Origin: a plasmid
Assembly: GCF_054482595.1 (NCBI RefSeq)
Contig: NZ_JBTHVH010000002.1
Direction: 5' to 3' (one strand)
Length of the DNA stretch: 3,083 nt
Shown here: positions 1 to 3,083 of the stretch, in pieces
Layout of the letters: each line of letters opens with the position of its first letter
Position numbering within the stretch: the first letter of the stretch is position 1
Program-made: the position numbers and the translations under genes
The notes under the pieces: model-generated
What the model saw: only the letters and a program-made list of their open reading frames with translations
Told to the model about the DNA's origin: nothing
Databases searched by the model: none

Positions 1-426
1 CTCTTCGCTCTCCGTCTGATTTCGTTTGCAATTCTGTTATTTACTCTAATGGTGATAACCTTAGTCCTCTGCCGTACTTCTGAACCACTACGCTTATTTT
101 TAGCCATCGCAATGACTCTCCATTTTGCACGTTCTGGGTGTCGGGGCCTGCCCTGACAGGAGGTATTCTCATGCAAGCGAATGTATTCGCGGTATGACGA
201 ATACACATCCTGTCCCGTTTTTCGCTACAACTTTTCGACAAAAATAAAATACCGCGTCGTAACCTGGTATTTCTGATACAAAAAAACGATGCTTCATTCA
301 ATATTATTTACACAGATTTTAAAAGTTATTTCTTGTTATTTAATAAATAACGCAAAATTAATTGATGCTTTTGTTCTTTGTCGTTTGTTGATTATTGAGT
401 AAATAAAGATTGTGTTTTCCTGATTA

Positions 427-432
427 TATAAT
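427..432 (+). promoter_or_regulatory. Candidate -10 hexamer (TATAAT) of a ColE1-type RNA II primer promoter
   Basis: Perfect TATAAT at 427-432 in an AT-rich tract. No good -35 was found (TAAAGA at 17-bp spacing matches 3 of 6). The implied start near 439 puts GATCAAGA (481-488) about 43 nt into the transcript, as in ColE1/pBR322 RNA II. Confidence 0.35.
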
Positions 433-438
433 CCATTG

Positions 439-1010
439 CCTGTTAGTGATACGGAGTGCATCAGAGAACAGGAAGCAGGAGATCAAGATAGTAGCATGTG
501 CATAAAATACAAACCCGTGAGTTATTGATATCGCGTTTATATATTAAAAATATAACTTAACATTGCTCTTAATATTTATTTTGCCCTCGCAATGGGTGCA
601 TTAATCCCCGTGCAGCGCTCCGCCAGCTGCTGACGGCCTCGACATGCAACCGTCAATGCGATAAAAGATCGGGGTGCGTTTCCGGCAACAACTAACCATA
701 GGGATGGTTTGCGTGCCGACAAACGCCGGAAACGCGCCTCAAATCCACCAAGCCGCCACGGTTCCGGCAGCGCCTTGAGCGCAACCGGAAACCGACTGGG
801 GAGAACCCCAGACCCCCACCGCTGCAACATCATCGGTCTGCGACCGCCTACCAACCGAGCGACTGCCTGTACCGTGCAAACGGGCTTTGCAGGGGCTGGC
901 GCGGTTCCTGGCGACCTGAAAGCCCCTGGTTAGGGGTATCGGCGCGCCTGGCCTCCTGAAACCCTCTGTAAGCGTTTTTCGCGCCTTCCATGCCCTGGGG
1001 GGCATTTAAA
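439..1010 (+). ncRNA. ColE1-family pre-primer RNA II (ends approximate)
   Basis: ORF-free GC-rich stretch of about 570 nt between the -10 at 427-432 and the G6 run (997-1002) plus A-rich transition (TTTAAAACCC, about 1005-1014). This is the pBR322 geometry (RNA II about 555 nt; G6 then GGAAAAACGCC at the RNA/DNA switch). The six-frame ORFs here are Arg/Pro-rich with no ribosome-binding site. Confidence 0.5.
441..549 (-). ncRNA. Predicted antisense RNA I (copy-number control); position inferred from the ColE1 paradigm only
   Basis: In ColE1 replicons RNA I is antisense to the first ~110 nt of RNA II. I could not identify its promoter or its three stem-loops with confidence, so the coordinates are placed by analogy, not by sequence match. 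Confidence 0.2.
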
Positions 1011-1015
1011 ACCCG
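997..1015 (+). other. ColE1-type origin core: G6 run and A-rich RNA-to-DNA transition
   Basis: CCCTGGGGGGCATTTAAAACCC resembles pBR322 TCAGGGGGGCGGAGCCTATGGAAAAACGCC, the G-run and A-run that flank the RNase H processing site. Comparison is from memory of pBR322. Confidence 0.45.
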
Positions 1016-1059
1016 TTTCGTGCGTCTGAGAGCTTCTGAGCGCGTTTGAAGGGCTATCT

Positions 1060-1215
1060 GGCGACTCATCCCTGAAAGAAAAACAACGGGATCACCGACA
1101 ACATGCGAGAGATGACACCGCTCGCCGCAGCCCTAGCGACCGAACGTAGTGAGCGAGTGGGCGAGGAAGCGGAAGAGAACTGGAAGGTACATTTGGCTCT
1201 TACGCACTTCCGTAA
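1060..1215 (+). other. Ori-distal conserved segment with primosome assembly site (n'-pas / ssi-like)
   Basis: TCATCCCTGA...GATGACACCGCTCGCCGCAGCC...GTGAGCGAG...GAGGAAGCGGAAGAG...CTCTTACGCAC parallels pBR322/pUC TTATCCCCTGA...GATACCGCTCGCCGCAGCC...GTGAGCGAGGAAGCGGAAGAG...CTCCTTACGCAT. The GAAGCGG heptamer (1166-1172) is, as I remember it, the conserved PriA/n' recognition motif. Confidence 0.6.
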
Positions 1216-1278
1216 AGAACTAAGAAGAGGGTATCGCGGAAGCCGCGAAAAATGGGGATCCAATTTTCAGATCATGTG

Positions 1279-1369
1279 AGACGGTCTATCAGACGTCATC
1301 AGACCGTCTATCAAAAAACACGTTGATTTTGATAGACCGCGAATCTAAAGTTGAATCTTGTCTATCAAA
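1279..1369. repeat. Iteron/operator cluster, consensus AGAC(C/G)GTCTATCA, three direct copies and one inverted copy
   Basis: AGACGGTCTATCA at 1279-1291; AGACCGTCTATCA at 1301-1313; GTCTATCA at 1362-1369; inverted TGATAGACCG at 1331-1340; a degenerate copy AGACGTCATCA at 1291-1301. The first two copies are 22 bp apart and each contains the 9-bp palindrome AGAC-N-GTCT. The cluster sits immediately upstream of the winged-helix gene. Confidence 0.65.
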
Positions 1370-1382
1370 AAAAGGTTTAATT

Positions 1383-1913
1383 ATGATAAACGGTCGATAC
1401 AAAACTAACCCTTTTTTGGAAGGTATGATAGTGCCCGTCAAGGGTAAACAAGTCAGACTTTCCCGTCTAGGTCGTGATGAAAACATACTGGTTAATCAGA
1501 ACACGGGAGAGGTTCAAGGCACCCATGTAACAACATATAAACGGGTTGATGGTGAGCAGTTTGTAAAACTATTCACTGCAAATATCGCGTTAACCTTTGA
1601 TTTGTCAGCTCAAGGAATAAAAGCATTTAACGTTTTGATGTGGGCAATACAAAAGCAGTCAGTATCAAAAGACGAAGTTTATTTAGATACTCACACAAGA
1701 GAGGAGTTTCTTGCTATTTATAATGATAAAGATAAACCAATTAAATTAAGTCAGCCAACATTTGCTAGAGGATTAGCTGAACTTACAAAAGCTCAAATTA
1801 TAGCTAAAACCATACGTCAAGGAGTGTATTGGATAAATCCAAATTTTGCATTCAACGGTGATAGAATCGCGTTTACAACTCTTATTGAAAGGCAAGGTAA
1901 TAGTGAAAAATAA
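1383..1913 (+). CDS. Small winged-helix DNA-binding protein, putative iteron-binding replication/maintenance protein (RepL-like; assignment tentative)
   Basis: Same frame as track ORF 1323-1913. ATG 1383 has AAGG 7 nt upstream; alternative starts are ATG 1425 and GTG 1431 (GGAAGG 7 nt upstream). Stop TAA at 1911-1913. The C-terminus has a helix-turn-helix plus beta-wing signature (QPTFARGLAELTKAQIIAKTIRQGVYWINPNFAFNGDR) and the N-half has a GEV...FVK pattern I recall from RepL. Direct repeats upstream fit an autoregulated iteron-binding protein. Confidence 0.65.
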   Translation: MINGRYKTNPFLEGMIVPVKGKQVRLSRLGRDENILVNQNTGEVQGTHVTTYKRVDGEQFVKLFTANIALTFDLSAQGIKAFNVLMWAIQKQSVSKDEVYLDTHTREEFLAIYNDKDKPIKLSQPTFARGLAELTKAQIIAKTIRQGVYWINPNFAFNGDRIAFTTLIERQGNSEK

Positions 1914-1926
1914 CAGGGTAAAAACA

Positions 1927-2715
1927 ATGAGAAAAAAGAATATGTTTCCGCCAGGATCTTTGAGTATAAAATTAAATAAACCTTTAACTAAATATGAAAT
2001 AATTGAGATATTGTCAGAATACCTCTCGATGTTAGAAATAACTTTTAGGATAAAAGAATTCCGGCTTTTCTCTTATTTGGAATGCGTGCTTAATGGAGAA
2101 AAGCAGGCTATATACCATAAAGATAATAACACAATCGTGTCTGGATTTTTACTTGATTCAATGAGGAGTACAAACAACAGAAAAATCAATAAGATACTGT
2201 TAGGCGGTGATGATTTTGATGCCATGGAAAAAATCGATGACATGTTAAATATGAAAGCAGAATCCAATCCGTATGAATATTTTAAGAGTTTTTTATCACT
2301 AGTTCCTGCTAATATTGCATATGATCTCATCAGGAAAACTGAAGAGTTAATCGAACTTGAGAGAGTGGAAAGGATAAAAGAAAAAATCGAATTGCGTGAA
2401 AAAAAGCTAGAAAAAGATAAAAACATATTAAAGGTTATTTATAACAATAAGATTGCTGAGTATTCATGTACTTTTGATTATTTTAGATCTGTATATTTGT
2501 CTAGCTCTGGTTTTTTATCTTTAGAAAAACAAAAGGCTAAATATTTTCTTGCGGAAGGGTTGGGTTCACTATTGAAGGATTATGTTGGTAAAAGGTTGGT
2601 AAGATTATCAATTAAAGGCGATGATGGTAAAGTCTCCATAGTCGAAATATATGATGAAAATGGTAGATTTTTATTTAAGACAAAACCTCTAAATAAATCA
2701 CAGAGTAATCTTTAA
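1927..2715 (+). CDS. Hypothetical protein (262 aa), AT-rich, with a highly charged E/K-rich central helix; function unknown
   Basis: ATG 1927 lies 14 nt after the upstream stop, with AGGG 8-9 nt upstream. The track ORF start at 1846 would overlap the upstream gene out of frame and is unlikely. Stop TAA at 2713-2715. Residues ~134-169 (nt 2326-2433, DLIRKTEELIELERVERIKEKIELREKKLEKDKN) look like a charged helix or coiled coil. No Walker, HEPN, PD-(D/E)xK or polymerase motifs seen by eye. Confidence 0.75.
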   Translation: MRKKNMFPPGSLSIKLNKPLTKYEIIEILSEYLSMLEITFRIKEFRLFSYLECVLNGEKQAIYHKDNNTIVSGFLLDSMRSTNNRKINKILLGGDDFDAMEKIDDMLNMKAESNPYEYFKSFLSLVPANIAYDLIRKTEELIELERVERIKEKIELREKKLEKDKNILKVIYNNKIAEYSCTFDYFRSVYLSSSGFLSLEKQKAKYFLAEGLGSLLKDYVGKRLVRLSIKGDDGKVSIVEIYDENGRFLFKTKPLNKSQSNL

Positions 2716-2761: not shown

Positions 2762-3083
2762 TTATCTGTCGAATAAGTTAGAGCCTGGGTATTTATTTTT
2801 GTGCTCTCTTTTTATTATTTTTATTTCCTCTATTATTAAATCCATCTCTTTATAAATATTTGAAATTTTCTGTGTTATCTCTTTCATTTCAGTACAGAGT
2901 GAAATTATTTTATGCATCACCTCTAGGTACTCTTTATCATTCGGACTCATCCCTTTATCAAATAATTTTTTCTGCATCCGACCAAGTTGTATTAATTCAT
3001 CTAGATATCTAGAAGGCACGCGCTGTTTTATTTCATTATTTAAACTTACTGTCCTTATATACTCTGAGATTGTCAGCCCTTCG
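2762..3083 (-). CDS. Hypothetical protein, 5'-partial (frame open to the window edge), AT-rich; function unknown
   Basis: Track ORF 2762-3019 begins at a GTG with no ribosome-binding site. The same frame has no stop for 21 more codons to position 3083 (…EGLTISEYIRTVSLNNEIKQR-VPSRYLDEL…), so the true start probably lies beyond the window. Stop TAA (plus-strand TTA 2762-2764). Convergent with the 1927-2715 gene. Confidence 0.5.
   Translation of the reverse strand, partial: EGLTISEYIRTVSLNNEIKQRVPSRYLDELIQLGRMQKKLFDKGMSPNDKEYLEVMHKIISLCTEMKEITQKISNIYKEMDLIIEEIKIIKREHKNKYPGSNLFDR

Follow-up and report, generated by a model that had tools for sequence, protein, structure and literature searches.

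RepL proteins and their distant relatives initiate replication on several groups of small plasmids. Plasmids of the pSN2/RepL type are classed as rolling-circle replicons (PMC5703833). The Rep proteins of the pHW126-like plasmids (pHW126 of Rahnella; pIGRK and pIGMS31 of Klebsiella pneumoniae) are winged helix-turn-helix proteins that are distantly related to pSN2 RepL and autoregulate (bioRxiv 10.1101/2022.12.05.519187; PMC2831885). In this group the ssi is not essential, yet it keeps multimers from forming, and relaxase activity has been reported for both pHW126 Rep and pIGMS31 RepM, with a nick just upstream of a conserved region (bioRxiv 10.1101/2022.12.05.519187). When two origins are placed in tandem, pHW126 loses one of them (PMC2831885), and two-dimensional gels of pIGMS31 reveal theta as well as rolling-circle intermediates (bioRxiv 10.1101/2022.12.05.519187). 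The RepL label is also carried by SEN1990, which was shown to have no role in replication and behaves as a regulator; the same report names an Asn-Pro pair as a hallmark of RepL (PMC10655114). Two further kinds of origin bear on the locus described here: that of pKL1, described as a Rep-dependent oriV that precedes rep and contains sites bound by Rep (PMC3832669), and that of ColE1, which is reported to co-occur with putative Rep genes in Aeromonadales and Pasteurellales (PMC8683028).

The stretch of DNA that we analyzed (3,083 bp; hereafter the window) is the whole circular Escherichia coli plasmid pLH10-b-1-j (NZ_CP100540.1; 99.9% identity, with a rotated start), whose replicon type in PLSDB is Col(MG828). 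RefSeq annotates three genes on this plasmid: a "replication/maintenance protein RepL" (1383-1913), a MobA accessory protein encoded on the minus strand (2762 to 107, spanning the window ends), and a "hypothetical protein" whose GTG start (1903) lies upstream of the repL stop, so that the two genes overlap, and which corresponds to the 262-amino acid cargo ORF called at 1927-2715 on the plus strand. Of 5,426 complete E. coli genomes, 13 carry a near-identical or related repL region, always on a plasmid and never on a chromosome. RefSeq already contains the plasmid, the gene and its family name, and the overall design has published precedent.

The repL gene (1383-1913, plus strand) encodes a 176-amino acid putative replication initiator (WP_032188789.1). 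It has a ribosome-binding site (AAGG) 7 nt 5' of its ATG and dN/dS values of 0.27 and 0.13 relative to homologs of 95% and 73% identity, respectively; the ORF is a real gene. The initial annotation had recognized a RepL-like winged-helix protein from a motif pattern, and three lines of evidence confirmed this assignment: Pfam RepL (PF05732) matched residues 35-174 (i-E=6.1e-7, with a modest 29.5 bits), the AF2 model contains a confident winged helix at residues 57-151, and a profile built from 103 diverse relatives aligned with archetypal pSN2 RepL in hhalign (probability 93.9%, E=1.6e-7). NCBIfam, PHROGs and PADLOC yielded no matches to the protein. A structure search returned matches that include MarR, Fur and ArsR regulators. 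The Asn-Pro pair that follows the wing (N152-P153) is near-invariant in the 103-sequence alignment and is missing from SEN1990; the protein combines the small size (~18-20 kDa), the single HTH/winged-helix domain and the Asn-Pro that characterize the RepL family. An additional N-terminal N-P-F motif (N9/P10/F11) is invariant across the proteobacterial RepL clade. The family is large: a search of 50%-identity cluster representatives recovered 1,016 relatives at E≤0.001. For the 120 closest homologs listed, the longest contigs are mostly just 1-8 kb, and PF05732 is present in all but two according to precomputed data.

Exact GTCTATCA occurs four times in the whole plasmid, and all four copies lie within 1284-1367, upstream of repL: two are direct, one is inverted and one is a direct copy in the leader. 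Direct repeat 1 (AGACGGTCTATCAGAC, 1279-1294, with exact GTCTATCA at 1284) and direct repeat 2 (AGACCGTCTATCAAAA, 1301-1316), both on the plus strand and 22 bp apart, are putative RepL-binding iterons whose position and spacing are the same in relatives. The inverted copy (TTTTGATAGAC, 1327-1337, minus strand) is 100% complementary to 1306-1316 and sits in the spacer of what is predicted to be the repL promoter, making it a putative autorepression operator. This promoter (1323-1351, plus strand) was read from the sequence as a -35 hexamer, TTGATT (1323-1328), a 17-nt spacer and a -10 hexamer, TAAAGT (1346-1351); a consensus promoter scanner omitted 1323-1351 and instead reported a site overlapping the repL start codon. 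The -35 is conserved as TTGATT or TTGTTT in the alignment of relatives. The inverted copy sits directly 3' of this hexamer in all six relatives in which it is aligned (L002, L007, L009, L010, L011 and L022); in two others (L008 and L012) the aligned position does not contain it. The fourth copy (ATCTTGTCTATCAAAA, 1355-1370, plus strand) falls in the predicted 5' leader.

Farther upstream is a second conserved segment. The motif AAGAACTAAGAAGAGG (1215-1230, plus strand) matches a family consensus, AAGAACTAAGAAGGGA. Of 14 close-clade plasmids from eight genera, 13 have this consensus once, on the plus strand and 5' of repL (chance expectation, 0.02 per plasmid). Between motif and repeats (1234-1278, plus strand) are a small hairpin (1234-1239/1243-1248) and then a conserved ATTTTCAGATCATGTG (1263-1278); single-stranded DNA of this region folds with z=-2.96, and the ATTTTCAG(A)ATCTGT element is kept in the Bartonella and Zymomonas relatives. 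DnaA boxes are no more frequent in the plasmid than expected (11 matches at ≤2 mismatches versus 11.0). Of an iteron-theta layout, the region has the 22-bp phasing and an inverted copy between -35 and -10, but only two phased direct repeats.

This arrangement is shared with plasmids from distant hosts. RepL relatives of 52-73% identity are encoded on E. coli plasmids of 2.2-4.2 kb, and relatives of 58-71% identity on plasmids of Bartonella (pBGR2), Zymomonas (pZMOBP6), Pseudoalteromonas, Halomonas, Vibrio, Providencia, Sodalis and Klebsiella. The common upstream order is AAGAACTAAGAAGGGA, the hairpin with ATTTTCAG(A)ATCTGT, two direct repeats 22 bp apart and the TTGATT -35, followed by an inverted repeat that fills the promoter spacer, the -10, a ribosome-binding site and repL itself. 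The two direct repeats together with the inverted promoter copy were seen in Bartonella, Zymomonas, Halomonas, Vibrio and Pseudoalteromonas. The link between the gene and its repeats, proposed in the initial annotation, was borne out: the GTCTATCA copies lie upstream of repL, and their layout is conserved with the gene across genera.

The repeats also vary in step with the protein. A recognition helix of the form TF[AW]RGL[AK]EL is paired with CTATCA repeats in six plasmids (the window, L002 and those of Zymomonas, Halomonas, Providencia and Vibrio), and a TFKRG[LI]NEL helix is paired with AGCTCAA repeats in six others (those of Bartonella, Pseudoalteromonas and Klebsiella, and three from E. 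coli); these 12 plasmids may reflect just one or two evolutionary events. The AAGAACTAAGAAGGGA motif stays unchanged across both helix/repeat types. From this co-variation we infer that the RepL winged helix reads its repeats. In BLAST searches the GC-rich, pas-containing block that precedes the motif in the window was recovered from E. coli plasmids only and from none of the Bartonella, Zymomonas, Pseudoalteromonas, Bacteroides, Salmonella or Klebsiella plasmids, a survey that left out the Halomonas, Vibrio, Providencia, Sodalis and second Klebsiella loci (represented by 600-bp flanks only). In the plasmids compared, the predicted origin accompanies the repL gene, not the pas block. What is new here is the description of the origin plan conserved in this clade and of its helix-repeat co-variation. 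Across Alpha- and Gammaproteobacteria the plan combines a motif that is invariant, phased repeats whose sequence follows that of the recognition helix, and a further copy placed as an operator; it could guide the design of minimal replicons and experiments on how RepL-type initiators act.

Taken together, we consider it likely that RepL is the sole, autoregulated initiator of this plasmid, acting at its own repeats and motif, with the pas as an accessory and no ColE1 origin. RepL (1383-1913) is probably the only initiator since relatives with two genes hold only RepL and a Mob protein: this is the entire gene content of pBGR2 and pZMOBP6 (RepL 58-67% identical), and the 2.2-2.5-kb E. coli relatives encode only RepL and MobA. 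The plasmid and its close clade are known from sequence alone, and the following steps are proposed on that basis. The single winged-helix domain of RepL would read the GTCTATCA repeats at 1279-1370. Bound to the two direct repeats, RepL would act together with AAGAACTAAGAAGGGA and the ATTTTCAG element (1215-1278) and would open or nick the DNA there, placing the start at or beside the invariant motif, with leading-strand synthesis predicted to proceed unidirectionally towards repL. On the inverted copy in the -35/-10 spacer, RepL would repress repL and the downstream ORF and so set copy number. The pas (1117-1206), on the strand that would be displaced last, would load a PriA primosome for lagging-strand synthesis. 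The mode of replication may be theta, rolling-circle or mixed.

A strictly rolling-circle version, in which RepL would nick the plus strand near the motif and the pas would serve as the single-strand origin of the displaced strand, is possible, and of the alternatives that we weighed it survives best. Rolling-circle plasmids keep their single-strand origin on the strand that is displaced last, and the pas is directly upstream, on what would be that strand. An invariant motif beside repeats of varying specificity is likewise reminiscent of rolling-circle origins, with their nick and bind loci. Such a mechanism would agree with the class to which pSN2/RepL plasmids have been assigned (PMC5703833) and with the tandem-origin loss of pHW126 and the relaxase activity reported for pHW126 Rep and pIGMS31 RepM (PMC2831885; bioRxiv 10.1101/2022.12.05.519187). 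The protein argues against it. The HUH motif is absent throughout the 103-sequence RepL alignment, which also contains no invariant tyrosine (the position of Y6 is Y64/F20/H14, and that of Y149 is Y78/F23), and none of the Pfam families Rep_1, Rep_2, Rep_trans and Rep_3 matched RepL. Judged by its residues, RepL lacks both the HUH motif and the invariant catalytic tyrosine of HUH/Rep_trans rolling-circle initiators; it is a single 20-kDa winged helix. Phased 22-bp repeats with an operator copy are, moreover, typical of theta iteron replicons, and pIGMS31 yields theta alongside rolling-circle intermediates.

A bolder proposal, which we hold to be unlikely and offer as speculation, is that the proteobacterial RepL clade belongs neither to the classical iteron-theta nor to the HUH rolling-circle type. 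A winged helix devoid of catalytic tyrosine would act at the 16-bp AAGAACTAAGAAGGGA, the N-P-F motif would recruit a host factor, and the pas would have been captured. The ColE1 pas would then be an interchangeable lagging-strand module of an enterobacterial replicon and, if this were true, the E. coli plasmid would offer a convenient model for the long-unresolved replication mode of pSN2 and pHW126.

Returning to RepL as the sole initiator, the sequence that precedes its motif is of a different composition from the rest of the plasmid. A non-coding block of 55-65% GC extends over 745-1208, compared with about 30-40% GC outside it, and is ~90% identical to the corresponding block of the 1.5-kb pKL1-type plasmids pG-EA11 and pO26-S1. 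It is the only sequence that the window and the pKL1-type plasmids have in common; both are typed Col(MG828), and the probe used for typing presumably lies within 745-1208. The Col(MG828) label appears to say little about the initiator used or about likely incompatibility, because the shared part is a non-coding block and the pKL1-type initiator is unrelated to RepL. That the label apparently tracks a non-coding block found with two unrelated initiators is a second new observation. We found no RNAI, RNAII, cer or DnaA-box signals in the block; its best candidate for a cer-like XerCD dimer-resolution site scored 14/22, within the range of shuffled sequences. The ~370 bp of GC-rich sequence upstream of the pas (745-1116) are not explained by RepL as sole initiator.

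The block ends in a ColE1-like primosome assembly site (pas/ssi, n'-type; 1117-1206, plus strand), a putative accessory lagging-strand signal that lies just before the repeat region of repL. It is 77% identical over 90 bp to ColE1 1308-1396, on the same strand as RNAII; the initial annotation had correctly placed a pas directly before the gene region. The folding of its hairpins is thermodynamically unexceptional (z=-0.9 in the window and +0.3 in ColE1), so that the site is called by homology alone; we infer its function from ColE1 and from the pHW126-family literature. The pas part is present as well in IncX-type plasmids that have rep genes and in a MOBQ plasmid, and in one locus (L018) in which rep is not annotated. 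By this distribution, the site is a widely reused, shuffled accessory element that occurs beside unrelated initiators such as pKL1-type RepA and IncX-type Rep. Since the pas occurs in IncX-type and pKL1-type plasmids too, it is no evidence of a ColE1 origin.

The initial annotation had taken the replicon to possess a ColE1 origin already, and no such origin was detectable. A scan with the Rfam RNAI model (RF00106) returned nothing at E≤1 in the window and nothing in 15 related loci, while ColE1, as positive control, scored 73.8 bits. BLASTN with 7-nt words aligned the window to ColE1 at the pas only, with no similarity to RNAII or ori, and an nhmmer profile of 745-1116 (eight copies of the block, pas excluded) found nothing in ColE1. 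Smith-Waterman alignment produced one weak colinear match of doubtful significance (window 817-894 versus ColE1 RNAII 799-877), reached by 1 of 200 shuffles and without backing from the nhmmer profile. Of the components of a ColE1 replicon, the pas is there; RNAI and homology to the ~550-nt RNAII and ori are not. With RNAI, RNAII and ori homology missing in the Rfam, BLASTN and nhmmer searches, we rejected a ColE1 origin. Removal of the ColE1 premise is new here and corrects a misreading, in that a pas resembling that of ColE1 does not imply a ColE1 origin.

These results bear directly on the idea of a dual replicon, in which the GC-rich block (~560-1210) would be a divergent, RNA-primed, Pol I-dependent origin of the ColE1 type and RepL a second system. 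Its best arguments are the pas, which has the ColE1 orientation and lies downstream of a GC-rich region, the Col(MG828) type in PLSDB and the precedent for co-occurring ColE1 origins and putative Rep genes (PMC8683028); in addition, a run of G and then a run of A at 996-1010 resemble, by eye, the RNA-DNA switch of ColE1, and the single weak RNAII alignment could be counted in its favor. We nevertheless regard a dual replicon as very improbable. Besides the missing RNAI and the failure of the block profile to find anything in ColE1, every plasmid examined that has the whole block also has a Rep gene (either pKL1-type repA or repL), and the pas part of the block recurs in rep-carrying IncX-type plasmids and L018. 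In a pKL1-type plasmid of 1,549 bp, only ~125 bp separate the end of repA from the block and only ~370 bp of block precede the pas, which is too short for an RNAII of ~550 nt plus its promoter. A sigma-70-like promoter was not predicted upstream. Of the earlier suggestion that repL is a second replication determinant, with a dual-replicon or cointegrate history, the replication determinant stands, and neither the second replicon nor the cointegrate does.

The remaining gene to be placed is the 262-amino acid ORF, which matched nothing in Pfam, NCBIfam, PHROGs or PADLOC and has only five homologous clusters, all on contigs of 2-4 kb; the three with a source name are from E. coli. The E. coli relatives of 2.2-2.5 kb do without it, as do the Bartonella and Zymomonas plasmids, and all of these retain RepL together with its repeats and the conserved upstream motif. 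Terminator prediction gave nothing between repL and this ORF. The two are probably co-transcribed and, because the genes abut with no predicted terminator, RepL autorepression probably sets the expression of the ORF as well. The initial annotation's other suggestion, an initiator fold repurposed so that RepL is mainly a transcription factor for this ORF and replication proceeds from something else, draws on the abutting or overlapping genes, the MarR, Fur and ArsR structure matches and the example of SEN1990 (PMC10655114), and is scarcely credible given that most relatives keep RepL, repeats and motif without the ORF, that no other candidate initiator or RNA origin was found on the plasmid and that RepL retains the N152-P153 of true RepL proteins, which SEN1990 lacks.

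With RepL as the probable sole initiator, the plasmid can be set beside the systems described above. It shares with ColE1/pMB1 a homologous n'-type pas of the same orientation (77% identity over 90 bp), and differs in encoding its own initiator and in having no detectable homology to RNAI, RNAII or ori. The pKL1-type plasmids of 1.5 kb (pG-EA11 and pO26-S1) carry as their sole gene an HTH RepA unrelated to RepL, and the AAGAACTAAGAAGGGA motif is absent from them; homology between RepL and pKL1-type RepA was rejected (BLASTP E=11; hhalign probability 9.5%). pIGWZ12, also considered as a relative, is a Rep_3 plasmid and hence unrelated.

Staphylococcal plasmids of the pSN2 family (PF05732) are likewise very small and encode a homologous HTH initiator, of 158 rather than 176 amino acids. 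The two proteins have TGE, FVK and NP...GD motifs in common; they are only 23% identical, and the N-P-F motif is an addition of the proteobacterial clade. The ssoA of pSN2 is RNA polymerase-dependent (PMC5703833), whereas the corresponding signal here is a ColE1-type pas. The closest named plasmids outside E. coli are pBGR2 (Bartonella grahamii), pZMOBP6 (Zymomonas mobilis) and pPS1M3 (Pseudoalteromonas), with RepL proteins 58-67% identical to that of the window. In pBGR2 and pZMOBP6 the upstream motif, repeats and promoter are laid out as they are here; pPS1M3 has the same repeat layout and a motif too diverged to score within three mismatches. All three are without the GC-rich pas block, and their mobilization genes encode MobV relaxases. 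At the position of the pas, pBGR2 has a strong AT-rich hairpin instead (z=-5.0).

The pHW126-like plasmids differ from the window in having four 20-bp direct repeats, compared with two direct, one inverted and one leader copy here, and the ssi of the window is, unlike theirs, a ColE1-homologous pas inside a GC-rich block. A Klebsiella relative, which we did not assign to the pHW126 family, encodes a Rep that is ~34% identical, and AAGAACTAAGAAGGGA was not found in it. As judged from published descriptions of pHW126, pIGRK and pIGMS31, these too are small, low-GC plasmids of Gammaproteobacteria with a separate MOB module, and they present the same succession of ssi/pas, conserved region, repeats, inverted-repeat operator and rep.

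A plasmid backbone of mobA, oriT and the GC/pas block (a GC-rich segment followed by a ColE1-like primosome assembly site, pas) is ~89-93% identical between the window and a group of 2.3-kb E. coli plasmids (L003 and others, H6-H26). Their RepL proteins, by contrast, share only 33% identity with that of the window over aligned codons and lack its N-P-F motif; the repeats also differ (TGTAACGTGT, spaced 22 bp), and the AAGAACTAAGAAGGGA motif is absent from these plasmids. This pairing of a shared backbone with divergent RepL proteins, repeats and motifs suggests that entire rep-origin cassettes have been swapped on one common backbone.

The N-terminal N-P-F tripeptide of the window RepL (residues 9-11; window 1407-1415) is invariant or nearly so among 103 diverse relatives, although the region around it is left unstructured in the structure model. 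A second motif, NP...FNGDR, lies C-terminally, after the wing (residues 152-161; window 1836-1865). Either motif might be a place where replication proteins of the host make contact. Separately, in the record copy examined for pSN2 (L019, NC_005565.1), the archetypal plasmid, the RepL gene (225-701, minus strand) is labelled 'aminoglycoside nucleotidyltransferase ANT4', which looks like an annotation error.

Directly 3' of repL is a 262-aa ORF (window 1927-2715; RefSeq start 1903) that had no match in Pfam, NCBIfam, PHROG or PADLOC. Its homologues form only five clusters (57-98% identity), every member residing on a 2-4 kb contig; the source is named for three of the five clusters, and is E. 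coli each time. This ORF is an orphan cargo gene.

Window 136-225 is ~77% identical to the DNA directly 5' of an operon containing a nikA-like mobA and a relaxase gene on a conjugative IncK2/Z plasmid (MPF_I, MOBP), and on this basis is assigned as a predicted oriT of I-complex type. The minus-strand mobA (window 2762-3083 plus 1-107) specifies a NikA-like accessory protein whose C-terminal part matches NCBIfam NF041264 (E=1.9e-9). Because the window encodes this MobA but no relaxase, mobilisation would require one provided in trans. In MOB-suite the plasmid is classed as non-mobilizable.

The GC-rich part of the GC/pas block (window 745-1116) comprises ~370 bp of non-coding DNA with 60-65% GC, and is kept at ~90% between RepL plasmids and pKL1-type plasmids, which use a RepA initiator. 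No RNAI, RNAII or cer-like Xer site was detected in it, DnaA boxes are not enriched within it, and short ORFs in the region are annotated inconsistently among relatives. As for the pas segment, the IncX4 plasmid L017 (NZ_CP122924.1) carries two copies in inverted orientation (locus 1081-1184 and 1493-1652), both downstream of its own replication initiator gene.

The window plasmid and the pKL1-type RepA plasmids (L005, L006) are all typed Col(MG828); other RepL plasmids with the GC/pas block (L002, L003, L009-L011) are untyped. Since this non-coding block (745-1208) is the only sequence that the window plasmid has in common with these RepA plasmids, the Col(MG828) marker appears, judging from shared DNA, to follow not the initiator but an accessory module.
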